Shown: piece after piece, positions 255-58,986 of the stretch
How positions within the stretch are numbered: the first letter of the stretch is position 1
How the letters are laid out: each line of letters starts with the position of its first letter
Source: Candidatus Nomurabacteria bacterium RIFCSPLOWO2_01_FULL_39_18
Lineage (GTDB): Bacteria; Patescibacteriota; Minisyncoccia; Phycocordibacterales; UBA9973
Direction of reading: 5' to 3'
Length of the DNA stretch: 64,000 nucleotides
Assembly: GCA_001787005.1 (NCBI GenBank)
Contig: MFUV01000010.1
Coordinates: 73,955-137,954 of the forward strand
Made by a program: the position numbers and the translations under genes
Notes under the pieces: generated by a model
Database searches by the model: none
Seen by the model: the letters and a program-made list of their open reading frames with translations, nothing else
What the model was told of the DNA's origin: nothing

Positions 255-2012
255 TCAATACACTTCCGCCTGGTAACACTTTTCACAATAAACGATTTCC
301 GGGCGGTCTGGAGAATATGAAGTTTCGAATTCTACTTCGCACTTGCTTCCTCCATGAAAATGATTTGTTTTGCTTCGCCCGTCGTAGCTTTGCGAAGTCG
401 GGTCGCACATACAAGTACGGTGCCAAAGCTTAAAAGGATTTCTGCGTTTTAATCTAGCCTCGTGACGACAATAAAAACATCGTCTTGGAATCGGAATACT
501 CATTTTTCTGTAGAATATTAATTCATTGGGAATGATCTTGTAATTTCTTTTACAATTTATGCAAACTAAAATTTCTTCGAGAATGCTGTCTGTCACTTCG
601 GTGATTGAATCAGGAATATCTTCTGGCAATAGTGTTTCCTTCCCCACCGTCCGTTGTAAATTATTTTGCCAGTTAAATCCTTTTTTGAAAGCTTCTTCCC
701 TAGAAAGTGGAAAGTGTTCTTGTGCTTCTGTTTCATTGTAGCCAAATGGAGATAGTTCTGCAGGATAAAATTCGCCAAATTTGTAACCGTTTTCCTTCTT
801 GTCTTTGTAGGGTATCTTGTTCATCTGCTCTATAATTTTCGGCACAAGTTTTTCGTATTCCTCTTTTGTATATTGTTTATTGAAAATACAATATTTGGCA
901 TTACGAAGACCTATACAACCAAAACAGTATTGGCAATTATGACAATGCTGGGTATATTCAATGTCCTGGCTTTTCCAGGAATAAATCCCGAACAAATTCC
1001 TGTTTGATTGATCGCAAGTAACACTTTCATAACATTCACTAAGTTCTCCTCCTCCCGCCATGTCATATGAATCTTTCATATTAGTACCAAAATCACAATA
1101 TTTACAATTCTCTGAATTTTTGGCAAAAAAAGAATTTTTTACATTCTTACAGCCCGAAATAACATCACCACTAACATTGACATTATGAATTCCATCCACA
1201 AAACGCCTCGGGTATTTTAAAATAAATTCATCGTACTCTTTCTGTGCTCTTTCTACTCCAGAAAATGTATCGAGCTTATAACTTGCTAAAATCTTCTCAT
1301 ATTCTTCTTTACTATATTGCTCGTTTTTAAAACAATACTTTTTACCAACCAATTCAGCACACATAAAGCAATTAGAGCAGTCTTTGCACCGATATAAAAA
1401 TTGTGAGTCAATGCAAGCTATATTTAACCGAGAATATTTAAGTTGATATGAGTTTCGAGCATTAAAACATTCATAAAGCCATTCACTTTTTGATCTGATA
1501 TTGATGCAATCCATCATATCTCGCCCTTCTAGAATAAAATAACTATACATCACATTTTCAATTCTCCACGCAATAAAAACCATGTAGCAATTTTTACCAA
1601 ATGCAAAGTCTTGTGTATATTCACAATTGACACTCCCAATTCCATCATCATTTACCAGCGCCATGTGCGGTACTTTTAATACAAGTTCTTTAAATTGTTC
1701 AAAGAATGACCGCGAGAAATCATAATCTTGCCCATAATCTTTTGGATCCCACTTATCGCTCCACCAGCATTTATTACAATAAATAACGGCACTGGACTCT
1801 TTAGAATAAATAGTTACCACAGATTTTTTACATAAATCACAAGTTCTGTTATATAGAGATGTGTTGTTTTTCCAAGCCCATCTCCTTTGCCTTCTGCAAT
1901 CCGGACAAAATGTCGGCGGAGGAACTTTGATCTTTTCATAAAACCCAAAGTCATCAGGCTCGATGGTGAAGTTTTGTTTACAATTTTGACAATTTTTTGT
2001 TTCGCTTTTCAT
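255..2012 (-). CDS. Cysteine-rich paralog A (585 aa), unknown family
   Basis: The N-terminus (CQNCKQNFTIEPDDFGFYEKIKVPPPTFCPDCRRQRR) and C-terminus (IVYCEKCYQAEVY) are shared with ORFs 2057..3751 and 43057..44766. Internal repeated modules are present: CxxCxxCxxC and KYC(I/F)xN(E/K)QYSKEEYEK. N- and C-terminal Zn-ribbon-like FY-K-I-VP-P-xCPxCRxxRR units occur. Confidence 0.75.
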   Translation of the reverse strand: MKSETKNCQNCKQNFTIEPDDFGFYEKIKVPPPTFCPDCRRQRRWAWKNNTSLYNRTCDLCKKSVVTIYSKESSAVIYCNKCWWSDKWDPKDYGQDYDFSRSFFEQFKELVLKVPHMALVNDDGIGSVNCEYTQDFAFGKNCYMVFIAWRIENVMYSYFILEGRDMMDCINIRSKSEWLYECFNARNSYQLKYSRLNIACIDSQFLYRCKDCSNCFMCAELVGKKYCFKNEQYSKEEYEKILASYKLDTFSGVERAQKEYDEFILKYPRRFVDGIHNVNVSGDVISGCKNVKNSFFAKNSENCKYCDFGTNMKDSYDMAGGGELSECYESVTCDQSNRNLFGIYSWKSQDIEYTQHCHNCQYCFGCIGLRNAKYCIFNKQYTKEEYEKLVPKIIEQMNKIPYKDKKENGYKFGEFYPAELSPFGYNETEAQEHFPLSREEAFKKGFNWQNNLQRTVGKETLLPEDIPDSITEVTDSILEEILVCINCKRNYKIIPNELIFYRKMSIPIPRRCFYCRHEARLKRRNPFKLWHRTCMCDPTSQSYDGRSKTNHFHGGSKCEVEFETSYSPDRPEIVYCEKCYQAEVY

Positions 2013-2056
2013 AATTTTAACATTCTCACATTCTTAAGAATGTCGGAATGTTATCT

Positions 2057-3751
2057 TCAATACACCTCCGCTTGGTAACATTTTTCGCAATACACTATCT
2101 CAGGTTTGTCTGCAGACCAAGAAGTTTTTATGTCTTTGCCACACTTGGCGCATTTGCGATCGTGGATTTCAATAGGATTTAGAAGTTTCGTGCGCGCACG
2201 ATCACGACAAAGTGGACAGTTGTGCGGAATGGGAAGATTGAAACGTCGATAGAAATCAATTTCCATTTTAATTAGCCGATAATTTTTACCGCACTTCTCG
2301 CATTTTAAGATTTCATTGACTATATCATCTTTCACATCTCTTATGTGTTTAGGTATTCTAATCGTTGCATCTTGATAATCTTTGGGTTCAACATCACGCC
2401 AGGCAAAACCTTCTTTTATCGCTTTTCCTTTCCCTAAAGGAAACCATTCCATACTTGTTGATTCATTGTAAGCCCAAGGGGAGATTTCTGAGGGCATCAT
2501 TTCGCCGTATTTATGAATTCTCCCAATTTTATCAATATAAGGAATCTCCATCATTTGTTTACGCAATTTTTCTGTGATCTTTAAATATTCTTCCTTTGAA
2601 TATCTTTTATTTAAAATACAGTACTCCCCTTTTTTAATGCCCACACAGCCAAACATATTATTGGACGAGTGACATCCAAAACAAAATTCGAGATTGCTAG
2701 CGTTGTAGTTCCAAACACTAAATTTTATATTAGACACTTGCAATCCAACCCAGCATGACTCATATATTAATTCTCCTCGCTCACCGAACTCGGTGTAATC
2801 ATAGCAATCAGCAATCGGTCCAGCTTTTAAAAACTGACAGTACCGACAGTCTTTCGCTTTGCGCACCATGTATGAATCGTGGACATTTTTAGAATTGTAA
2901 ACGTACTCCCCCGTTGTATTAACACTGTTTCTATCGTTGAATTGTTTGCGTGGTTGTGTGAGAAGAAATTCCATCGTAGATTTGCGAAATTTCTCCAGAC
3001 TTTCAACAGACCCAAAATCGTATTTTTTAAAAATTTTTTGAAATTCTTCTTTAGAATATGGTTCGTTGAAAATATGGTATTTCTTTTTTGTAAGATTGGC
3101 ACAGCCAACACAATCAGAACATCCTACACAACTACGGCAAAACCACATATTCATAGAACCGACGACATCTTCACAGAAAAAAGTTTGATAGCTGGAGTGG
3201 GTAATAACATTGCCATAGCCCATTTGATCATGGCGTGTCCAAGAACAGTCAATGGAGTCTTTAATGTCAGCAACTTCATTTAAATAAGCACAGTTTTCTG
3301 CATAATCAATTCTAAAACATAAATAACAATCTTTGCATTCTGCGGCAGCATTGCAATAATCACTCCGAACCATTGACGCATGTTCAGTATAGAGAGCAGG
3401 CAACGGTACGTCGCGCATAAGTTCACCAAACTGTTCTAGAAAAGATCGTGACCAATCAATTTCTCTGCCATGTTCCTTAGGATCCCACTTATCACTCCAC
3501 CAAATATCCTGACGATAGACTTTATAGGGTGAATCTTTGTGATGCGTCGTGATAACCTCCTCGCCAGTAAAATCGCATTTTCTTTTATATAAAATTTGAT
3601 AGCCCTGCCAAGAAAGCCTGCGCTTAAGTCGACATTCTGGACACCAAGTCGGTGGTGGCACTTTGATTTTCTCATAAAATCCAAAATCCGAAGCGTCTAT
3701 TGTAAAAGAATTTTTACAATTTTGACAAACCCTAGTTTCTTCCATATGCAT
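2057..3751 (-). CDS. Cysteine-rich paralog B (564 aa), tandem with paralog A
   Basis: Same architecture as paralog A: N-terminal CQNCKNSFTIDASDFGFYEKIKVPPPTWCPECRLKRR, internal CRSCVGCSDCVGC and YSKEEY modules, C-terminal IVYCEKCYQAEVY. Confidence 0.75.
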   Translation of the reverse strand: MHMEETRVCQNCKNSFTIDASDFGFYEKIKVPPPTWCPECRLKRRLSWQGYQILYKRKCDFTGEEVITTHHKDSPYKVYRQDIWWSDKWDPKEHGREIDWSRSFLEQFGELMRDVPLPALYTEHASMVRSDYCNAAAECKDCYLCFRIDYAENCAYLNEVADIKDSIDCSWTRHDQMGYGNVITHSSYQTFFCEDVVGSMNMWFCRSCVGCSDCVGCANLTKKKYHIFNEPYSKEEFQKIFKKYDFGSVESLEKFRKSTMEFLLTQPRKQFNDRNSVNTTGEYVYNSKNVHDSYMVRKAKDCRYCQFLKAGPIADCYDYTEFGERGELIYESCWVGLQVSNIKFSVWNYNASNLEFCFGCHSSNNMFGCVGIKKGEYCILNKRYSKEEYLKITEKLRKQMMEIPYIDKIGRIHKYGEMMPSEISPWAYNESTSMEWFPLGKGKAIKEGFAWRDVEPKDYQDATIRIPKHIRDVKDDIVNEILKCEKCGKNYRLIKMEIDFYRRFNLPIPHNCPLCRDRARTKLLNPIEIHDRKCAKCGKDIKTSWSADKPEIVYCEKCYQAEVY

Positions 3752-3797: not shown

Positions 3798-4691
3798 TTG
3801 GTGCTGCGGATCTGGCTCATTTTTTTGATTAAAATACATTGGTGTGCTATTGTTTTCAGGATGAATCCCCCAGAAATTACAATGAATAAAGACAATTCTT
3901 TACAATCCATTCCTCGCATAATTTTCTTTCTTTTGATGATTACATTGGTTGTTTATTCCTCGTCTTTAAGCATAAGATACAGACGAGAAGAACAAATCAA
4001 AAAAATTGAATCTGAAAAAAAAATCTATTTGACTGGAAAATTTGAGCCGAGCGAGCGAGAAGATTTTGTTTTGATTTCACCGGAAAATGCTTTCGGTGCG
4101 AACGATATGTATTTAAGGAAAGAAGCTTACGGAACATTTATTTTGATGCGCGAAGCCGCCAAAGAAGATGGAATTGATTTAAAGATAGCTTCAGCTACTA
4201 GGAATTTTGATTATCAAAAAAATATCTGGGATGAAAAATGGGCTGAGCTTGAAGTTGTTGATGGAAAAAATATAGATCAAGAAATTCCCGACGGATTAAG
4301 GCGATTTAAAAAAATATTAGAATTCAGTTCGGCTCCTGGCACATCCAGACACCATTGGGGCAGTGATATTGATATAAATAGAGTCAATCCTCTTTATGCT
4401 GGCAGCGCTAGAGATGAAATAGAAAGAGAAAAAATATATGCCTGGCTTGTTAAAAATGCCGCTCAATTTGGATTTTGCCAAACCTACACTCTCAAAAATG
4501 AAGCTAGAAAAACTGGGTACAAAGAAGAAAGGTGGCATTGGTCTTACCTGCCGCTCTCCAAAGCGCTGACGCAAGAATACAAAATTTTAGTAAAAAATGA
4601 AGATATCAAAGGATTTTCGGGCGACGAATTCGTTTCCACTTATGATCTCGTCAACAACTATGTGCTAGCCATCAACCCCGATTGTATCTAG
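3798..4691 (+). CDS. Peptidase M15 (VanY/D-Ala-D-Ala carboxypeptidase-like) with N-terminal TM segment
   Basis: SRHHWGSDIDIN matches the M15 S-x-H-x-x-G-x-A/D-x-D zinc-ligand motif, and the C-terminal EERWHWSY resembles the EPWHxRY motif. The true start is probably the Met at about 3882 (MNKDNSLQ...). Confidence 0.6.
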   Translation: MVLRIWLIFLIKIHWCAIVFRMNPPEITMNKDNSLQSIPRIIFFLLMITLVVYSSSLSIRYRREEQIKKIESEKKIYLTGKFEPSEREDFVLISPENAFGANDMYLRKEAYGTFILMREAAKEDGIDLKIASATRNFDYQKNIWDEKWAELEVVDGKNIDQEIPDGLRRFKKILEFSSAPGTSRHHWGSDIDINRVNPLYAGSARDEIEREKIYAWLVKNAAQFGFCQTYTLKNEARKTGYKEERWHWSYLPLSKALTQEYKILVKNEDIKGFSGDEFVSTYDLVNNYVLAINPDCI

Positions 4692-19126: not shown

Positions 19127-19182
19127 TGTTCAGTGTTAAACACTGTTAAACACTCAGTGTTGAACATTTCGATGTTGAACAT
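19127..19182. repeat. REP-like hairpin repeats, family A (units gtgttgaacac / tgttgaacatttcg), 5' flank of RAYT-1
   Basis: Tandem imperfect palindromes: cagtgttaaacactgttaaacactcagtgttgaacatttcgatgttgaacat. Confidence 0.7.
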
Positions 19183-19573
19183 TTTTATGGCAGTTTTTCA
19201 ATCATTTGTTGGATCGAACATTCACCAGGAAAATCAAAGTTAGGGACATCCCCATACCCAGTAGTGCCACCAATAAGAGCATGCCATAATCGATACTTTT
19301 GTCTTTCTAGGGGGTTGGGATAAGATTGATTGATAATATCTAGGCACCGCTCTTTCCATTTTTGAAACTCGGTAACTCCTATTTTTTCTTGAAAAACAAG
19401 CATCTTTTGCTTAAGTCTAATAATTAACTCTCTCTCTCTGCCGAAGTCTGTAATAATTTTGTACTTTTTTCATCCCTGGATTGTACACCCTCAGCTCCTT
19501 GGGAAAATTTATCTGGTTTTGACATAATATTTGATTTTATCACACCAACAACCCTTTTCCCAATACCCACACT

Positions 19574-19612
19574 AATGTTGAACAATGTTAAACACCGAGT
19601 GTTGAACATTTT
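19574..19612. repeat. REP-like family A copy immediately upstream of RAYT-1 start
   Basis: atgttgaacaatgttaaacaccgagtgttgaacattttt. Confidence 0.7.
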
Positions 19613-19635: not shown

Positions 19636-20301
19636 ATGAGAAATATAAAAATAGCACCCGGAGAATATTATCATATTCTTAATCGTGGAATGAGTAAGCA
19701 ACTAATTTTTCATGACAATAGAGATAGAACAAGATTCCTCTTTCTAATTTTATACTTTCAATCCCCTGTTACAATTCAAAATATACATCGTCCAGTAAAG
19801 TCATTTGTTGAACACTCGGTGTTTAACATTGATAAAGAGATTGAGCAAGAAATTGTTACAAGGAAGTTCGTAGAACTCGTCTCCTTTTGCTTAATGCCAA
19901 ATCATTTTCACTTAATCGTCAAAGAAATCGAGGAAAATGGTATGGCTAGATACATGCAAAGAGTCTTGAATGGTTATACCAAATACTGTAATACAAAATA
20001 CAATAAATCGGGACATCTTTTTCAGGGACCATATAAAGCAGTACATATAAGGAGTAACGAGCAACTTTTATATTTATCTTCATATGTCCACAGGAATCCG
20101 AGAGAACTGAAAGAGTGGTTAAATAAAGAAAGTAGTTATCCATGGTCAAGTTACCAAGATTTTATAAAGAAGAATAGGTTTAAAGAATTACTTGTTCTTG
20201 ATATAATCAGTGGACAATTCAAAAATAAAGACAAGTATAATAAATTTATAAAGGAGAGTACGGCAAAATTATTAAAGGAAGAACTGGATTGGATAGACTA
20301 G
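19636..20301 (+). CDS. REP-associated tyrosine transposase-like (IS200/IS605 Y1 HuH transposase family), RAYT-1
   Basis: GEYYHILNRG near the N-terminus, the HuH motif CLMPNHFHLIV, and the downstream QGPYK with Tyr. Size is 221 aa. A REP-A copy (tgttgaacactcggtgtttaacat, 19806..19829) lies inside the ORF, in-frame. Confidence 0.75.
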   Translation: MRNIKIAPGEYYHILNRGMSKQLIFHDNRDRTRFLFLILYFQSPVTIQNIHRPVKSFVEHSVFNIDKEIEQEIVTRKFVELVSFCLMPNHFHLIVKEIEENGMARYMQRVLNGYTKYCNTKYNKSGHLFQGPYKAVHIRSNEQLLYLSSYVHRNPRELKEWLNKESSYPWSSYQDFIKKNRFKELLVLDIISGQFKNKDKYNKFIKESTAKLLKEELDWID

Positions 20302-20304
20302 TAA

Positions 20305-20351
20305 GTGTTCAGTGTTCAACACCGAGTGTTGAACACTCGGTGTTGAACAAT
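20305..20351. repeat. REP-like family A, 3' flank of RAYT-1 (perfect hairpin gtgttcaacac-cga-gtgttgaacac, then a second overlapping hairpin)
   Basis: The 11-bp stems are exact reverse complements. It sits in inverted orientation relative to the upstream copies, a REPIN-like arrangement. Confidence 0.8.
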
Positions 20352-20428
20352 ATGCGGGATTAGTTTAGTGGCAGAATGAGTCCTTCCCAAGGATTAGACG
20401 GGGTTTCGATTACCCCATCCCGCACCAG

Positions 20429-30629: not shown

Positions 30630-31520
30630 TTATATACCCCACACAGCAGTATTGGCAAGTGAAACAAGGCGATTATTCGACTTTTCCAAGACACAGAGCT
30701 CCCCGGCTTCTGTTTGACCCTTAAAATCTTTCATTATTTCAGCAAGCGCATAACTAAGTGAAAGCGCAGAAGAATCGGTAGCATAAGAAGTCAAAATCAC
30801 AAAAAGGGGCTTGTCGGTTAGAACCCTCCCGACCAAAGAAAGCAGTTTCGGCAACATTTCTTCTATCTTCCATACTTCCCCCCTGGGACCACGGCCGTAC
30901 TTGGGCGGATCCATAATCACAGCGTCATACTTATTGCCTCGTTTTATTTCTCGCTCTAGAAATTTTGTGGCGTCATCTTCTATCACCCGCATTGGCATTT
31001 TATCAAGGCTAGATAATTTTTGATTTTCTTTCGTCCAATTTAATACTTGCTTCGAGGCATCCACATGCGTCACATCTCCACCAGCCCTGAGAGCAAATAG
31101 GCTCGCCACACCGGTGTAGCCGAATAAATTAAGAAATTTTATTTTCTTGCCGGAGTTTTTTATTTTATTCTCTATGTAATCCCAGTGATTTGCCTGCTCC
31201 GGGAAAAATCCCAAATGTCTAAATGGTGTGGGAGAAACAAAAAATTTAATTCCCCTGTATTCCATCTCCCACTTCGTGTCAAGGTTCAACCTTGACATTT
31301 GCCACCCGGCTTTGGCACCAACTTTCGAGCTCCAGAATTTTCCATCAACATTTGTCCACTGTTGTTGAACACTCGGTGTTGAACATTTCGGCCAGACAGC
31401 ATCTTCATAAGGACGAATAAAAGTGTATTTCCCGAATCGCTCCAGCTTCTCTCCACCACCCGTATCTAGAAGCTCGTAGTCCACCCAATCCTTTGAACAA
31501 AAAATTTTTATCTGGTTCAT
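30630..31520 (-). CDS. Class I SAM-dependent RNA methyltransferase, RlmI/RlmK-like
   Basis: LNLFGYTGVASLFALRAGGDVTHVDASKQVLNW is SAM-binding motif I with a post-I acidic residue. Motif IV is VIMDPPKYGRG. It parallels E. coli RlmI (VLNVFSYTGGF...VIVMDPPKF). It hosts a REP-A insertion. Confidence 0.65.
   Translation of the reverse strand: MNQIKIFCSKDWVDYELLDTGGGEKLERFGKYTFIRPYEDAVWPKCSTPSVQQQWTNVDGKFWSSKVGAKAGWQMSRLNLDTKWEMEYRGIKFFVSPTPFRHLGFFPEQANHWDYIENKIKNSGKKIKFLNLFGYTGVASLFALRAGGDVTHVDASKQVLNWTKENQKLSSLDKMPMRVIEDDATKFLEREIKRGNKYDAVIMDPPKYGRGPRGEVWKIEEMLPKLLSLVGRVLTDKPLFVILTSYATDSSALSLSYALAEIMKDFKGQTEAGELCVLEKSNNRLVSLANTAVWGI
31361..31392. repeat. REP-like family A copy inserted in-frame within the methyltransferase gene
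   Basis: tgttgttgaacactcggtgttgaacatttcgg encodes ...PKCSTPSVQQQW... on the minus strand. It is identical in core to the RAYT-1 flanking repeats. Confidence 0.75.
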
Positions 31521-31523
31521 TTT

Positions 31524-32351
31524 TTATATCAAAAATTCTATCACATCTCCGTCTTTTACAATGTATTCTTTGCCTTCGGTGCGAACCAAGCCTTTCGAGC
31601 GAGCAGCAACATGTGAACCACAATCTAATAAATCTTTCCAATTTACTACTTCCGCGCGGATAAATTTTTCTTTGAAATCATTGTGTATCGCTTTACCCGC
31701 TTCCGGCGTCGTAGAACCTCTGCGAGTTGTCCAGGCGCGAGTTTCATCTTCGCCAGTGGTTAAAAAGGTAATTAGGTTGAGCAAATCATAGCTTGCCTTG
31801 ATGAGACTATCGAGTCCAGTGCCAAAAACTGGATCAACTTCTATGTACGGACCAGGAATTTTATCTGCCACTTCCCGCATATTTTTCTCGCTAGCTTCCG
31901 ACATATTAAGAACATAAAGAATCGGTTTTCTAATTCCTGCTTGTTCTAGCTCAAAATTTATTACTTCAATATCAAAAAGCGGGTCAATTTTATTATGCAC
32001 ATGGATTGTATTTGCATCCTCGAAAATCCGCACCATTTCGATAATCGCATCCACTTCACGAATGTGGGAAAGGAATTTATTACCGAGCCCGGCGCCCTCG
32101 CTTGCCCCCTTGACCAATCCTGCAATGTCCACAAACTCAACTACCGCCGGAATAACTTTTTTAGATTTGCTCATCGCCGCAAGCTTCTCTAATCTCTCGT
32201 CTGGCACCGGAACAATACCCACCGACGGGTCAATGGTACAAAAAGGATAATTCTCCGCAGGTACGCCTTTCTTCGTCAGCGCATTAAAAAGCGTGGACTT
32301 ACCCACGTTCGGTAAACCGACAATCCCTATTTTCAGAGAAGAACTTGACAT
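31524..32351 (-). CDS. ychF: Ribosome-binding ATPase YchF (Obg-family), compact form
   Basis: IGIVGLPNVGKSTLFNALTK and NYPFCTIDPSVGIVPVPDERL match the YchF N-terminus. The TGS-like C-terminus is EYIVKDGDVIEFLI. At 275 aa it lacks the usual helical insert. Confidence 0.85.
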   Translation of the reverse strand: MSSSSLKIGIVGLPNVGKSTLFNALTKKGVPAENYPFCTIDPSVGIVPVPDERLEKLAAMSKSKKVIPAVVEFVDIAGLVKGASEGAGLGNKFLSHIREVDAIIEMVRIFEDANTIHVHNKIDPLFDIEVINFELEQAGIRKPILYVLNMSEASEKNMREVADKIPGPYIEVDPVFGTGLDSLIKASYDLLNLITFLTTGEDETRAWTTRRGSTTPEAGKAIHNDFKEKFIRAEVVNWKDLLDCGSHVAARSKGLVRTEGKEYIVKDGDVIEFLI

Positions 32352-33954
32352 ATATATCGCTTAGACTAAGTATACCCTCAACTTGTAATGATTTTTGACT
32401 AGCAATGGAAAACGAAAGACACTCGCTTATAACCTTCTGTCGAGCCTGAAAATCAAAGTTTTTGAGGCATTCGGCTGCAGCTGCGGTGAATTCTTTAATT
32501 TCATCCTTGCCGGGGAGTATTATGTCATTTTTAGATGTTTTTTCCAAATCAGCCTGGATTATTTGATCTTCCAACTTTCTTATCTCTTCCCTTATGGGTG
32601 CGACATACTCCTTGAACTTTTCAAGCGAAAAAGCTTCTTTAGAGAATGCGTTAGCAAGACGATCCTCTCTTACTTGCAGTTTTTCTATTTCCTTAAGAGT
32701 GCCTTCAGCACTGATAGCTGACTCTGATTTATAACCTTTATGATTTTCAATCCACCTTTCGGTGTATCTTTGCAGAAGTTCTGGTGAGCTCATTATTTCT
32801 TTCACTCTTCCCCATAATACTTTATCCGCTATTCTTGCGTTGATGCCACGCTCTCTGCAATCAGGTTCAAGTGGAAAACTATAAACGCGATCAGTGCAGC
32901 GATAATATAAATACTTTCCTCGTTGAGGACCCTCACCTGCTCTTCTTTTTCCGCAAGTACACCAAATTTTGCCAGCCAATAAATAATCATTCTTTTTATT
33001 TCGACCTAGAGTTGCAAAATTCTTTTTCAATCGCGCTCCGGCTTGTTTAAAAAGATTATTGTCAGTAATAATCACTGGAACTGTTATCTTATACCACTCA
33101 TCTTTCGGCTTCATCTTTCTGCTAGTTTTTTCTATTTTTTTATACTTTTCATTTTTAAGAGGCTTTTTGGGAACTACTGCAAATGAAGCACCCCAATGCG
33201 TTACTCCAATGTATACCTCGTGGCGCAAAAGAGTACTTAAGGTGCTTGTATTCCAAACTCCCCTTTTACTTTTTCTTGGATAGATTTTTTGTTCATGTAA
33301 TTTTCTAACAACTGCACGGAGAGTCAAACCATCATTAGCAACCCAGGAAAAAATATTTCTAACGATTTCGGCTTCACGATCGTTTATCTTATAATGTCCG
33401 GGATCGTAGTCGCCTGCGCTCTTTTTACCTTTATTGGGAATATAAGTATATCCATAAGGCGCTACGGTGGTAAGAACTTGATTGTTTTTTACACGATTTA
33501 CCTTGCCTATTCTAAAGCGTTCAGCAATTTTAGCCTTTTCATATGCAGCAAATAAACCTCTCACGCCAAATAGCAGCTTGTCTGTAGCGCTTTCTACCGG
33601 TAACATCGTCACAAATAAAATTTCTATACCTAGTTTTTTCAACTCGTTTATTACAATCTGCTGAAGAAAGAGTTCCCGGCCTAGACGGTCAGGATCATAA
33701 ATAACAACCGCATCCCAAATTTTATTTGTTGCATCGTGTCGTAATTGATCTAGTTGGGGCCTAGCAAGAATATCTCCGCTCCAGCCCTCATCTTTGTAGG
33801 TTTTAACGACAACTAACTCATTCTCTTTAATATACTTATCCACTTCAGACAACTGAGCGTCAATGGTTTTCTGATCTTCCTGATTTGAAGTGGAAACACG
33901 AGCATATACTGATACATGCTTTATTCCCATTTTTGCTATATTTTCATTTTTCAT
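32299..33954 (-). mobile_element. Large serine recombinase (resolvase/invertase catalytic domain + recombinase domain + zinc-ribbon)
   Basis: N-terminal VSVYARVSTSNQEDQ carries the catalytic Ser. YDPDRLGRE and the downstream recombinase domain follow. CTCGKRRAGEG...YYRCTDR is a Zn-ribbon. Size is 551 aa. Confidence 0.85.
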
Positions 33955-42931: not shown

Positions 42932-43056
42932 ACATTCATTATACCTTAATAAGTTCTAAAAAGCCGCTATTTGAGAACGCAGAAAAGCACCAATTCTCAA
43001 TCGCGGCTTATTTTAAGCGGCAATTTTGGAAAAAGTTTTCCACAGCTATTGCTTAT

Positions 43057-44766
43057 TTAATACACCTCCTGCTGATAGCATTTTTCACAATATATTATGG
43101 GTGCGTATTTTTCGGGATATACCGTCTCTACCTCTGTGCTGCATTTAGAGCAATTGCGGTTGATAATTTGCAAAGGTGGACGCTTATCCATCCGCCGTAT
43201 ATGCCTGATATCAAAACACACTCGCGGTAGTGGTAAATTCATTCTTCTGTAAAAAGATAATTCATTTTCAGTAATTCTATAGGCTCCTACAGAGTTGGGG
43301 TTGTCTTTTTCGGCACACTCAATAACCTCGTTTAAAATCGAATCACTTACCTCCTTGATGGTTTCAGGCAATTCCGAGGCCTTAAGGGTGACTTTGTAAT
43401 TTTTCTTACCTTTATCTATCCAGCGATAACCATTTTTAATTGCCTCTTCTTTAGTGAGGGGATAATAATAATTCGCAATTGTTTCATTGTAAGCAAAATC
43501 AGAAAAATTGGCCGGAAAGTTCTCTCCAAATCGATACTCCAGACCTCTATTATCTATATAAGGTACTTTTTTCATAGAATCAATGATTTCATTTTTAAGC
43601 TTTTCATACTCTTCCTTGGAATATTCTTTATTTAGAATGGAATATTTCCCTTTTTTCAAACCCACACAACCGAAGCAATCATGAGCGCCTGGACAATTAT
43701 TGCAGTAGTATAAGTCGTGCGCACCCATCCAGCACTGATTACAAAAATAAAGGCGAGCAATATCAATGCCACAATTCTGGGATTCGTAGATTTGCTCCGC
43801 CTTATTGCCCCATTCAAAATAATCCATACAATCCTCAGCGTTGAAAACCATAAATAGGTACTTACCGTCTCTTACGCTTTCGCAGTCGAAAGATTCCTTA
43901 ACGTTTTTACTATTCATAAACCAGTTACCTGAAACACTCTCAGACTTAATAGACATTATGGCCCTCTGTGGAAATTTCTTCCTAAATTCTTCAAATTCAA
44001 CCTTCATTTTTTCAATTCCAAGAAAAGTATCTAGTCTCATTTCTTCCAGCTTTTTGAAATATTCCTCTTTTGAATACTTTTTGTTCCAAATACAGTACTC
44101 CGCATTAACCAAATTCACGCAACCCACACAATTCGAAGAATTTCTGCATGCGTAAATAAAAGAACAATCACGGGAATCCTTACTCTCTTGGCCAAATTTC
44201 ACATTGTAGCAGTTCGCGCAATTAACACACTCATAACACAGCTCGCATTCGAAAAGCCATGAGCCATCACAACAATCAAGAATATGTTTTTTGCCGTTGT
44301 AAAGATATAAAGAATTTTCTGGATAAGAACTACGAAAAACCATATAAGAATTTTTAGGATCGGTGACGCGATGAGCATAGGGGCTGTTTATGGCAAACCC
44401 TTGCCGAACTATAGACATTCTAGGCACTTTATTTTGAAGTTCTAAAAATTGTTCGAAGAAAGATCGGCTTGGGTCATAGTCCATGCCGTAGGAATAGGGG
44501 TCCCAAACATCGGAGTACCAAATATCAGTTTCGTAAACAGGAAACTGGGTGTCCTCCGAATACATGCTAAAAATCTCTTTACCGGAAAAACTGCATTTTC
44601 TTTTATATAAAACAGTCTCGCTTGTATGTATAAAGCGCCGAAGCAGTCTACATCCTGGGCAAAAAGTCGGAGGAGGTACTTTTATTTTTTTATAAAATCC
44701 GAAATCATCAACTTCAATAGTAAAGTCCTTTTTGCAGTTTTGACAGACCTTGGTTTCAGCTTCCAT
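43057..44766 (-). CDS. Cysteine-rich paralog C (569 aa)
   Basis: Same N-terminal (CQNCKKDFTIEVDDFGFYKKIKVPPPTFCPGCRLLRR) and C-terminal (IIYCEKCYQQEVY) ends and internal YSKEEY/CxxC modules as ORFs 255..2012 and 2057..3751. Confidence 0.75.
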   Translation of the reverse strand: MEAETKVCQNCKKDFTIEVDDFGFYKKIKVPPPTFCPGCRLLRRFIHTSETVLYKRKCSFSGKEIFSMYSEDTQFPVYETDIWYSDVWDPYSYGMDYDPSRSFFEQFLELQNKVPRMSIVRQGFAINSPYAHRVTDPKNSYMVFRSSYPENSLYLYNGKKHILDCCDGSWLFECELCYECVNCANCYNVKFGQESKDSRDCSFIYACRNSSNCVGCVNLVNAEYCIWNKKYSKEEYFKKLEEMRLDTFLGIEKMKVEFEEFRKKFPQRAIMSIKSESVSGNWFMNSKNVKESFDCESVRDGKYLFMVFNAEDCMDYFEWGNKAEQIYESQNCGIDIARLYFCNQCWMGAHDLYYCNNCPGAHDCFGCVGLKKGKYSILNKEYSKEEYEKLKNEIIDSMKKVPYIDNRGLEYRFGENFPANFSDFAYNETIANYYYPLTKEEAIKNGYRWIDKGKKNYKVTLKASELPETIKEVSDSILNEVIECAEKDNPNSVGAYRITENELSFYRRMNLPLPRVCFDIRHIRRMDKRPPLQIINRNCSKCSTEVETVYPEKYAPIIYCEKCYQQEVY

Positions 44767-53760: not shown

Positions 53761-54902
53761 TAAAATCCAATATTTTTAATTTTCTTATCGATTATCTTTT
53801 CTGCTTCAGAAATATCTTTTTTGATACCCGTCATCCTTTTGTGCTCAGCAAGGGGTAATTTCTGATTATCATAATCAATAATATCTTCGCGCAGAATATC
53901 AAAGGACTTATGCACAACATTCTCAGCATCGTGGATTTCATGTTTTATATTTTTATCTAAATCTTGACCCAGGTGGAAGTGAATGCGTAGCAGTAAGTAA
54001 AGTATTAAAAGTATCAGAAGCAAGATGAGCAGAGATATCTCCCAGCCGACATCGTCTAATATGTTGCCAATCTTTACAATAATCATATTTGATGTCTCGC
54101 TGTTCGTCTTGTCCGCCTTGACCAACACTGCCGTTACATTATAGGTGCCACGCCTGAGTGACGAGGGAACCAGAAGGGTAAACTCTCCCTCCAGGTCAGC
54201 CTCACCGAGAATGAAAATTTTTGTTCCGTCTGTTGCGACAAAGGTCAGAAGCGCTTGCGCCCCCGGATACTCTGACGTACCGACTATAGCCTGTGCGCCA
54301 TACTTAGCGCCAAGCGCAATTTCTGGCGCCCGGAGAGTAGGTTCTGGCTGTATTTCTTCCGGAATTACCTCGGGCTTGGGTTCTGGCGTTTTTGGTTTAA
54401 CTGTCGCCTGTTGAACAGAAAAAGTCGCGCCGATTAAATTGCCTGTGATGTCGGTGCCTTCTCCGTCATTGGCGAGAATTTGCCCTGATTGAAAAGAAAA
54501 ATTACCAGTCCCAGGATTAATTGCGCGTAAATTTATTGTAACGACAGCGCCAGAGGAACCGGGGAAACCACCCAATGCCACACCTTCAAACCTGATTGTG
54601 TTCGCAGTTTTTGAAACAGTCGGTTGAGTAACCCAAAAATCAAGAATGGAGCCTGCCTTTGACACAGATTCTACGGAAAAAACCGCGGATGGAAACGATA
54701 ATAATCCAGAAACGGCATTGAAAGGGGTATTAGAAGTGGCTATGACTTTAACCACCACGCGATTCCCTACTTCAAAATTCCCAGATGAGGGACTAATGGA
54801 TAACGCGGCGGCATTGGCCACAAGCGGTCCTAAAACGAATAGCAAAAAAGGTACTACCGTTTTAAAAACTTTGACAATATTTTCCCTAGAAAAAAGACGC
54901 AT
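53760..54902 (-). CDS. Cohesin-like domain surface protein with Pro-rich linker and C-terminal TM
   Basis: LSISPSSGNFEVGNRVVVKVIATSNTPFNAVSGLLSFPSAVF is cohesin-like. A PKTPEPKPEVIPEE linker and a TM helix near the C-terminus follow. Confidence 0.55.
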   Translation of the reverse strand: MRLFSRENIVKVFKTVVPFLLFVLGPLVANAAALSISPSSGNFEVGNRVVVKVIATSNTPFNAVSGLLSFPSAVFSVESVSKAGSILDFWVTQPTVSKTANTIRFEGVALGGFPGSSGAVVTINLRAINPGTGNFSFQSGQILANDGEGTDITGNLIGATFSVQQATVKPKTPEPKPEVIPEEIQPEPTLRAPEIALGAKYGAQAIVGTSEYPGAQALLTFVATDGTKIFILGEADLEGEFTLLVPSSLRRGTYNVTAVLVKADKTNSETSNMIIVKIGNILDDVGWEISLLILLLILLILYLLLRIHFHLGQDLDKNIKHEIHDAENVVHKSFDILREDIIDYDNQKLPLAEHKRMTGIKKDISEAEKIIDKKIKNIGF

Positions 54903-58188: not shown

Positions 58189-58230
58189 GGTTCCATAATT
58201 ATAACAAATTCTAATTTGGAAGCCAATCCT

Positions 58231-58292
58231 ACCAAGGATTTACCAAGGGGAACCCTTGGTAAATTTAGTTGCTACCAAGGGGAACCCTTGGT
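58231..58292. repeat. REP-like hairpin repeats, family B (taccaaggggaacccttggta), two copies 5' of RAYT-2
   Basis: Stem ccaaggg/cccttgg with loop gaa. The copies are 20 bp apart. Confidence 0.75.
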
Positions 58293-58303
58293 ATGATGAC
58301 TAG

Positions 58304-58960
58304 ATGCAACGAAAAACAAAATTTGTGATCGGAGAGTTTTATCATATTTACAATCGTGGAGTAGAAAAAAGAATTATTTTCCCAAATATATCTGATTATA
58401 AAAGATTTCTAGCTCTTTTATATCTTGCAAACAGTAATGAAATAATACAATTCCGAAATGATTTTTCTAGAACTTTCCTTGAGAAAATTTTCGAGAAAGA
58501 TCGAGGCGAGCCGTTAGTTGCCATTGGAGCATATTGCTTAATGCCAAACCATTTTCATTTATTACTCACTCCCCTGGTGGAGGGAGGGATATCAAAATTC
58601 ATGTTAAAGCTTCAGACTGGGTATTCTATGTATTTCAATAAAAAGAATGATCGGGTTGGGGGGCTTTTCCAGGGAGTTTTTAAATCACAACATATAGATA
58701 AAAATGAATATTTAATGTATATTTATGCGTATATTCATTTAAATCCAACGAAGTTAAAAAATTCAGAATGGAAAACACAACCAAAAAGTTTTTTAAATAA
58801 ACTAAAAAAATTTATTGCTGAATATCCATATTCTAGCTTGCAAGAATATTTATCTGGAAATTATAGAATACTAAACCCTAAGCCATTCCCGATGGAGAAA
58901 AAAGATCTTATTGACCACGATTCTATGATAGATGATTTTAGCGAGGTATTACCAAGGTGA
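58304..58960 (+). CDS. REP-associated tyrosine transposase-like (IS200/IS605 Y1 HuH family), RAYT-2
   Basis: GEFYHIYNRG. HuH motif AYCLMPNHFHLLLTP. Downstream catalytic Tyr region GGLFQGVFKSQHI. Collinear with RAYT-1 and about 30% identical by eye. Confidence 0.8.
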   Translation: MQRKTKFVIGEFYHIYNRGVEKRIIFPNISDYKRFLALLYLANSNEIIQFRNDFSRTFLEKIFEKDRGEPLVAIGAYCLMPNHFHLLLTPLVEGGISKFMLKLQTGYSMYFNKKNDRVGGLFQGVFKSQHIDKNEYLMYIYAYIHLNPTKLKNSEWKTQPKSFLNKLKKFIAEYPYSSLQEYLSGNYRILNPKPFPMEKKDLIDHDSMIDDFSEVLPR

Positions 58961-58986
58961 ACCCTTGGTAAATTAGTAAATTAGTG
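58950..58986. repeat. REP-like family B copy (taccaaggtgaacccttggta) overlapping the RAYT-2 stop, followed by a direct repeat aaattagtaaattagt
   Basis: Same stem as the upstream copies. Located between RAYT-2 and the end of the giant surface-protein gene. Confidence 0.7.

Follow-up and report, generated by a model that had tools for sequence, protein, structure and literature searches.

A repetitive extragenic palindrome shared in-frame by methyltransferase genes of Paceibacteria and its relation to a neighbouring RAYT-like gene

A REP copy inside a methyltransferase gene and its relatives at the RAYT-1 locus

To characterise a short palindrome that lies in-frame within a methyltransferase gene, we analysed a 64,000-nucleotide stretch of the genome of Candidatus Nomurabacteria bacterium RIFCSPLOWO2_01_FULL_39_18 (hereafter the window; all coordinates refer to it). 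The palindrome belongs to a family of repetitive extragenic palindromes (REPs) whose other full copies in the window surround, or lie within, a gene resembling the REP-associated tyrosine transposases (RAYTs), here named RAYT-1. The relevant features are the following:

30630..31520, minus strand: host gene, encoding a 296-amino-acid class-I methyltransferase dependent on S-adenosylmethionine (SAM; PF10672, 2IGT-like); intact open reading frame (ORF)
31363-31385, plus strand: 23-nt REP core TGTTGAACACTCGGTGTTGAACA (exact sequence), in-frame within the methyltransferase gene
31360-31391, plus strand: 32-mer tgttgttgaacactcggtgttgaacatttcgg at the core, occurring once in the window
19636..20301, plus strand: RAYT-1, a 221-amino-acid Y1 HUH transposase-like protein with HFH at residues 90-92 and the motif YVHRNP
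19134..19181, plus strand: distal cluster, made up of one REP together with four half-sites, some 440 nt upstream from the proximal REP
19576..19608, plus strand: upstream (proximal) REP with an extra half-site, in the opposite loop orientation (CGA), 28 nt before the start of RAYT-1 (z = -4.5)
19806..19828, plus strand: RAYT-1-internal REP, in-frame at codons 57-64 and read as (F)VEHSVFN(I)
20313..20349, plus strand: two overlapping REPs just past the RAYT-1 stop codon, forming a 17-bp hairpin (-20 kcal/mol, z = -7.6)

The consensus of this REP family is TGTTNAACAC-NNN-GTGTTNAACA, which forms a hairpin with a 10-bp stem. The core within the methyltransferase gene follows this layout as TGTTGAACAC-TCG-GTGTTGAACA, that is, two TGTTNAACA half-sites at a period of 14 nt whose arms can form a 10-bp stem with one central mismatch (G.G/C.C). 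It is identical at 23 of 23 nucleotides to the copy at 20327-20349, which lies just 3' of RAYT-1 and about 11 kb away. When we searched the window for the 22-nt core GTTGAACACTCGGTGTTGAACA with at most three mismatches, we found six places, compared to 0.00 expected from shuffled sequences: five at the RAYT-1 locus (19145, 19586, 19807, 20313 and 20328), and the methyltransferase copy, the only solitary REP in the window. The half-site TGTTNAACA occurred 15 times, compared to 1.55 expected, and 14 of the 15 fell within the known REP copies. Given these excesses, the match to the RAYT-flanking repeat is real and far above chance, and the 31363-31385 sequence truly belongs to the REP family around the neighbouring RAYT-like gene. 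The first-pass annotation of this DNA, which had matched the 32-mer to the repeat flanking RAYT-1, was therefore right about its identity, even though its coordinates (31361-31392) were off by one. None of the six window copies carried a GTAG or CGTC tetranucleotide at its ends, and an Rfam search of 18.5-32.5 kb at a permissive threshold returned tRNAs and noise only, with no Rfam family for the REP. A lone half-site, TGTTGAACA, lies at 54409-54417, outside every full REP copy.

Within the host gene, the minus-strand reading of the core is C-S-T-P-S-V-Q-Q, corresponding to codons 46-53, and the ORF reads WPKCSTPSVQQQWTNV / AVWPKCSTPSVQQQWTNV across the motif with its frame intact over all 296 codons. 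The earlier statements that the repeat does not disrupt the frame of 30630..31520, and that the family is tolerated in coding sequence, thus hold for a true family member in an intact gene. The description of the host as an "RlmI-like rRNA methyltransferase" was only loosely right. The protein is indeed a SAM methyltransferase, but it scored 46.9 bits against the RlmI equivalog NF011707 (cut-off 712), whereas it reached 42 bits against PF10672 (cut-off 27). The closest solved relative is the Agrobacterium SAM methyltransferase 2IGT, which the host family profile matched nearly over its full length (E = 3.5e-82, profile positions 10-281), while the RlmI structure 3C0K aligned to the family in the catalytic domain only. 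The REP falls in an N-terminal-domain loop whose length varies; an AlphaFold2 model of the methyltransferase was left unused for placing the site, its N-terminal domain having a predicted local distance difference test score (pLDDT) of 43-64.

RAYT-1 matched Pfam PF01797 (E = 1e-8) and scored 40.1 bits against the NCBIfam model REP_Tyr_transpos (NF047646), below the cut-off of 80. Judged by these scores, it is a distant relative, and no curated member, of the REP-associated tyrosine transposase family. While a phmmer search of the PDB with the single RAYT-1 sequence gave nothing useful, a profile built from its orthologues matched ISDra2 TnpA (2XM3, E = 4e-4) and E. coli TnpA-REP (4ER8, E = 0.07). 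In total, 1707 homologues of RAYT-1 were found at E <= 1e-20. The gene is flanked on both sides by REPs in inverted orientation (19586 with loop CGA; 20313/20327), and a tRNA-Gly gene begins at 20354, after the downstream double REP. The internal REP, separated by about 220 nt from the upstream copy and by about 500 nt from the downstream one, kept its position in RAYT orthologues at 53-80% identity (among them L007, L009, L033, L036, L062, L099, L103, L107, L209 and L211). It was read as [F/Y]V[K/E/Q]H[S/R]V[F/L]N, and its loop was found in either orientation (S versus R). The whole REP-RAYT(internal REP)-REP unit was kept in about 25 other Patescibacteria genomes with RAYTs 53-80% identical, and likewise in L209 and L211, and the gene order GGDEF-glutaredoxin-RAYT-DivIC-LepA was conserved. 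By its gene and repeat content, the RAYT-1 locus is a REP/RAYT-type system.

The same hairpin occurs at the same codons in orthologous methyltransferases

We compared the site across 117 methyltransferases of other Paceibacteria (67-79% identity overall) and defined its state by the interval between a conserved K and a conserved W. Four states were distinguished:

REP-encoded: CSTPSV[Q/E/K]Q-x, 38 of 117
flipped-loop: CQTLGVGQ-x, 2 of 117
LONG (same length, non-hairpin): [T/A]LTKEV[Q/K]x-x, for example L207, 16 of 117
short (three amino acids fewer): TLSxKE, then W, 61 of 117

A hairpin was thus present at the same codons in 40 of the 117 orthologues (38 REP-encoded plus two flipped), all from other species and at 65-80% identity, which means that the copy long predates the genome of the window. 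In light of this sharing, the copy is not the direct evidence of REP mobility within this genome for which it had been taken. Neither is it an insert in the sense of a lineage-specific extra segment, as orthologous loops were either of the same length (K-TLTKEVQK-xW) or three amino acids shorter (K-TLSxKE-W). The REP form therefore differs from the short form by 9 nt and from the LONG form by zero, while the element itself measures 23-32 nt. The orthologue comparison revealed no target duplication and no remnant of the short form at the REP site. The first-pass annotation had also held that orthologues from other phyla encoding the same peptide would speak against an insertion; the peptide does occur in other species and in candidate phyla-level groups within Patescibacteria, though not in unrelated phyla.

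Distant homologues (40-47% identity) and 2IGT carried the short form, which is therefore the ancestral one. In neighbour-joining trees with bootstrap, built from the methyltransferase alone and from the methyltransferase concatenated with YchF, the basal split alone was supported. In the concatenated tree this split (100% support) separated a clade of 17 taxa that was purely short from a clade of 30 taxa, in which all 13 hairpin and LONG forms were mixed with short forms. One flipped form and one REP form were sister taxa at 99% bootstrap. We consider it probable that the copy entered within one Paceibacteria clade whose ancestor had a loop three amino acids shorter, and that many descendants keep it while in others it has decayed or is absent. 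By eye, LONG-loop DNA resembled the REP at chance level only (about 8 of 24-27 positions), a comparison that speaks neither for nor against the LONG loop being a decayed REP. In one orthologue, L172, the site was occupied by another hairpin, a perfect one of 9 bp. The 2-10 kb flanks around the methyltransferase loci contained zero additional REP copies outside the gene, whatever the state of the site. On one contig of a second genome, a RAYT, the methyltransferase copy and a copy in TruB occurred together.

The embedded copy is constrained and covaries at the DNA level

To see at which level the copy is conserved, we compared codon usage among six REP-type orthologues with 66-82% local identity. 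The motif codons TGT TCA ACA CCG AGT GTT were identical in all six, whereas in the rest of the gene the same six sequences shared one codon in just 20 of the 155 columns whose residue is conserved and, where that residue is at least fourfold degenerate, in 1 of 77. Since the synonymous sites of the core are invariant while those of the remaining gene are saturated, the copy is old and constrained as DNA. Within the second half-site, the central base is free (CAA, GAA or AAA), giving the Q/E/K alternatives in the peptide.

The variation that does occur was mostly confined to the unpaired central base of each half-site, to compensatory stem pairs and to the orientation of the loop. Pair 4-20 was found as T-A, as A-T (L205) and as C-G (L206 and the flipped forms), pair 6-18 changed from A-T to G-C (L202), and pair 8-16 from C-G to A-T (L200 and L204); the loop was either CGA or TCG. 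In a departure from this pattern, L200, L202 and L204 also carried a T-to-C change at position 15, which left pair 9-15 unpaired. Across 15 sequences, 91% of the cells were paired and six of the ten pairs had changed on both sides, a result that none of 500 shuffles equalled; sliding the register reduced pairing to about 30-44%. In the orientation of the flipped forms, the canonical element would introduce an in-frame TGA, while the observed TGT CAA ... GGA CAA evades the stop codon with pairing restored. Judging from these alignments, the methyltransferase copy probably evolves as a DNA hairpin rather than as ordinary coding sequence, and the protein in all likelihood merely filters for reading frames free of stop codons.

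The variants also bear on where the divergence took place. In genome P0040, the methyltransferase hairpin is the variant TGTTCAAAAC...GCTTTCAACA, whereas the upstream, internal and downstream REPs of its RAYT locus are canonical and perfect, which indicates that this hairpin diverged in situ. The same genome contradicts the idea that every variant hairpin was re-copied from the REP pool of its own genome.

Two alternative explanations can be weighed against these data. First, REP transposition into the methyltransferase gene of this genome could be recent and lineage-specific, with the family mobile at present. The 23-nt identity with the copy at 20327-20349, 11 kb away, and the intact ORF would fit such an event. 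However, the same hairpin is present at the same codons in the 40 orthologues from other species, six of which have all motif codons in common although synonymous sites elsewhere are saturated; moreover, in net length the forms differ by 9 nt or not at all instead of by the full element, and a second genome has the same RAYT-to-methyltransferase arrangement. We therefore regard recent transposition as very improbable. Second, CSTPSVQQ could simply be a conserved peptide of the protein family whose REP likeness is fortuitous, and it is indeed common to many orthologues. Yet the invariant codon choice is confined to the motif, the 23-of-23 match to a REP copy compares with none expected, the peptide varies exactly as the palindrome permits, and the same DNA is found in three other reading frames in unrelated genes, such that coincidence is hardly credible.

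REPs recur in coding sequences across the clade

By definition, REPs are extragenic. We scanned one genome per species for the palindrome and found it in at least 119 loci, with several per genome (between a few and about ten, a lower bound). According to the record titles, these loci belong to Nomura-, Niyogi-, Zambryski-, Sung-, Kaiser-, Vogel-, Taylor- and Nealsonbacteria and to Minisyncoccia; of the remaining loci, a few are titled just "bacterium" and one Methanosarcinales archaeon (L040). The latter contig (CAZBFZ010000050.1) contains two overlapping copies of the Patescibacteria REP and is probably mis-binned.

Approximately 22 of the 71 assessable solitary copies lay deep inside ORFs of at least 150 amino acids. 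The genomes of this lineage are very small and leave little room between genes. About one third of its solitary RAYT-linked palindromes are in-frame. With Pfam domains matched on both sides, the in-frame palindrome was identified in MurB, PyrF, MetRS, TruB, Fmt, YchF, Alr, MurG, an RsmI-like methylase and MnmA; it was also present in MurC-, LigA- and SecA-like ORFs, those three being named by eye only. The housekeeping-gene loci are:

L003, L005, L010, L020, L022, L027, L032, L039, L046 and L054
L061, L067, L073, L082, L085, L086, L111, L115 and L119 (further loci)

For PyrF, MetRS, TruB and YchF, the REP site was the same in two genomes. The host genes and the positions within them were heterogeneous, with linkers and loops favoured. 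For annotation, this means that peptides like VKHSVFN, LLNTECLT and CSTPSVQQ in Patescibacteria proteins are encoded by the repeat.

The methyltransferase itself has a second in-frame REP site, at approximately residue 78, which is rarely occupied and read in a different frame:

L129 (272-294) and P0075: NVKHSVFD
P0034: DVKHRVFD
L157 (1098-1120): NVRHSVLD

Both loop orientations are represented at this second site, and L129 and P0034 carry hairpins at both sites. The 3' end of the second-site hairpin coincides with native TTT GAC AAA codons, which are also found in hairpin-free relatives, and the net gain at this site is therefore smaller than the element. Taken together, REPs enter coding sequence recurrently in this clade and are tolerated there, and at this level the broader idea of the first-pass annotation holds.

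How the copy arose and why it persists

We favour, with a probability of roughly two in three, the explanation that the window contains an old REP copy that is shared with orthologues, sits in a tolerant loop and is constrained as a hairpin, as opposed to a product of recent transposition. A possible course of events would start with RAYT-type HUH Y1 transposases, which, we infer, bind REP hairpins folded from single-stranded DNA and cleave them. Occasionally, copies might land, or be templated, beside native sequence that resembles a half-site, which would add a net 9-15 nt only. Copies in tolerant loops with an open frame would then persist, and sequence-specific recognition of the hairpin could keep these persisting copies constrained.

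Several observations weigh against this explanation. As single-stranded DNA, the copy in the window is a weak hairpin (-5.3 kcal/mol, z = -0.86). Bootstrap support was mostly below 50% inside the mixed clade, so the origins cannot be counted. On protein distances the states did not cluster (0.205 within versus 0.206 between states; permutation p = 0.46, 111 proteins, that is, the 117 minus six near-duplicates), and the permutation test on the concatenated set gave a weak or borderline clustering signal (p = 0.05). Among contigs of at least 50 kb, a RAYT-1 homologue accompanied the non-short state in 4 of 11 cases and the short state in 0 of 12, a weak association (p = 0.037) that relies on contigs paired by their length among the best 120 RAYT matches. 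Furthermore, the hairpin of L206 is identical to ordinary RAYT-flanking or solitary REPs in other genomes (L105 and L108), and L129 contains two copies of its own TGTC...GACA variant inside one gene; both cases suggest copying from a lineage-specific REP pool. Lastly, template-switch correction of quasi-palindromes could yield paired changes without any selection, and the evidence on the cause of the constraint is mixed, being ambiguous among selection, homogenisation and mutation bias.

Some of these observations would also fit a hot spot, meaning that REPs entered many times independently at this codon position, seeded by native sequence similar to a half-site (V-Q-K, GTT CAA AAA, in the LONG form). 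The lack of correlation between site state and protein phylogeny, the occurrence of both loop orientations, with flipped and REP forms as sisters at 99% bootstrap, the identity of the L206 hairpin with ordinary REP variants of other genomes, and the overlap of the second-site hairpin with pre-existing native codons all agree with repeated entry. On the other hand, REP-type alleles share their boundaries and frame exactly and replace the entire K...W interval with no remnant of the conserved E-W of the short form, and LONG-form DNA has no residual similarity to the REP. In addition, the trees resolve too poorly for events to be counted, and common ancestry is slightly favoured by the concatenated data (p = 0.05). 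We consider recurrent entry at this position possible, though unlikely.

The constraint on the old, shared copy raises the further possibility that the hairpin has been exapted, either as a DNA site for protein binding or processing or as an mRNA hairpin that tunes methyltransferase expression, with the RAYT and housekeeping copies forming a regulatory set. More broadly, selection might have kept the RAYT-associated hairpin long-term in Paceibacteria coding sequences (the RAYT gene, the methyltransferase and many housekeeping genes) as a sequence-specific cis-element that is recognised by the domesticated transposase or another factor. The invariance of synonymous sites and the compensatory pairs, including in-situ divergence that kept pairing where the RAYT-flanking REPs are canonical, point in this direction, as does the conservation of the RAYT-internal copy in orthologues at 53-80% identity. 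However, 77 of the 117 orthologues have no hairpin at the site (16 LONG and 61 short), one genome (L038) has lost most of the methyltransferase gene, and the copy in the window folds weakly. Moreover, the element belongs to no Rfam family, and the heterogeneity of host genes and positions, with linkers and loops favoured, is what would be expected of tolerated selfish insertions. Both the specific and the broader form of this idea are thus doubtful. If a selected cis-element were involved, the intragenic copies would be functional parts of a RAYT-host system and no tolerated junk, with the copy inside the RAYT gene as a candidate site of autoregulation.

Whatever their cause, the shared and variant hairpins provide a natural data set in which selection acting on a hairpin in DNA could be told apart from selection acting on the peptide it encodes. 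With these data one could ask whether recognition by RAYTs constrains REP sequence, and study the reshaping of protein loops by short selfish palindromes where genomes are reduced.

Comparison with known palindromic elements

The system resembles the REP/RAYT systems of Proteobacteria (REPtrons, REPINs) in that a Y1 HUH transposase-like gene lies between short imperfect inverted palindromes, that such palindromes are dispersed elsewhere in the genome, and that, as described for vertically inherited RAYTs (PMC5581495 and PMC3116915), gene and repeat family are conserved together across related genomes. In PMC5581495 and bioRxiv 10.1101/2022.05.22.493013, REPIN-RAYT systems are characterised as mostly vertically inherited and RAYTs as typically single-copy. 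In contrast to the proteobacterial systems, the family described here has another consensus, no GTAG/CGTC tag and a low copy number (a lower bound), a REP is located inside the RAYT ORF, about one third of the solitary copies are intragenic, and RAYT-1 scores below the NCBIfam REP_Tyr_transpos cut-off.

From other phyla, REPs within genes have been described before. Members of the GTAG/CGTC families have been reported entirely within ORFs of known proteins, whose linkers and loops are considered tolerant of them, and in two Xanthomonas species the recB gene carries intragenic REPs at nearly matching positions (Di Nocera et al. 2013, PMC3733652). The copies studied here differ from these in phylum and REP family, in occupying one site across dozens of species (65-80% protein identity) with synonymous invariance and stem covariation, and in a net length change far below the size of the element. 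Our literature search on RAYT/REP systems and in-frame palindromic elements returned nothing for Patescibacteria; the new aspect is hence the presence of such REPs in Patescibacteria.

Rickettsia palindromic elements (RPEs), the classic example of palindromes within coding sequence, are mentioned in the same work (PMC3733652). Like the REP in the methyltransferase gene, an RPE lies in-frame and leaves the ORF intact. In 2000, Ogata and colleagues reportedly described RPEs as palindromic repeats located in-frame in housekeeping genes of a reduced genome, the proteins still being functional. RPE-1 measures approximately 100-150 nt and represents a clear insertion that adds 30-50 residues, whereas the element in the methyltransferase gene has 23 nt and adds three residues or none, and REP-free orthologues are not shorter by the length of the element. 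We know of no dedicated RAYT for RPEs.

The TnpA proteins of IS200/IS605 elements, with their subterminal hairpins, are similar in that they share PF01797, that hairpin DNA flanks the gene, and that the profile of RAYT-1 orthologues matched ISDra2 TnpA. The hairpins of the RAYT-1 family differ in occurring also as solitary dispersed copies, and there is no sign that the RAYT gene itself moves, since it sits in conserved synteny.

Other features of the window and of related contigs

The window contains a second RAYT-like gene, which is flanked by another palindrome, ACCAAGGGGAACCCTTGGT, with no further copy of it in the window outside this locus (58230-58974):

58304..58960: second RAYT-like gene, 218 amino acids
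58242, 58274 and 58951: copies of ACCAAGGGGAACCCTTGGT

Upstream of RAYT-1, about 390 nt lie between the distal cluster (19134-19181) and the proximal REP (19576-19608). Two short ORFs on the minus strand, neither of which has a Pfam match, are located there (19185..19403 and 19424..19609), and the segment could be a REP-bounded remnant.

In L038 (Nomurabacteria RIFCSPHIGHO2_02_FULL_42_19), the syntenic methyltransferase at 4395-4631 is a 78-amino-acid remnant with an in-frame deletion of about 226 codons. One of its breakpoints coincides with the 3' edge of the REP embedded in the gene (...CSTPSVEQ, followed by SNNRLVPLANTAVWSV), and the junction shows a short, imperfect microhomology (GTGTT-GAAcAA versus GTGTTgGAAaAA). 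We considered a deletion made by the transposase and rejected this idea, as such microhomology suffices for slippage.

Directly upstream of YchF and the methyltransferase lies a gene for a large serine recombinase (551 amino acids, 32299-33954, minus strand), and on the unrelated metagenome contig L202 a gene with Resolvase and Recombinase domains (604-2298) is found at the same position. YchF of the window (31524-32351) is short, with 275 amino acids, compared to 343-344 amino acids and a longer mid-region in Zambryskibacteria (L046 and L073), where the embedded REP falls within this extra-long middle region. Finally, the regions 856-3739 and 43056-44757 are linked by several families of direct repeats of 36-107 nt with 66-84% identity, which suggests that they are paralogous gene clusters.

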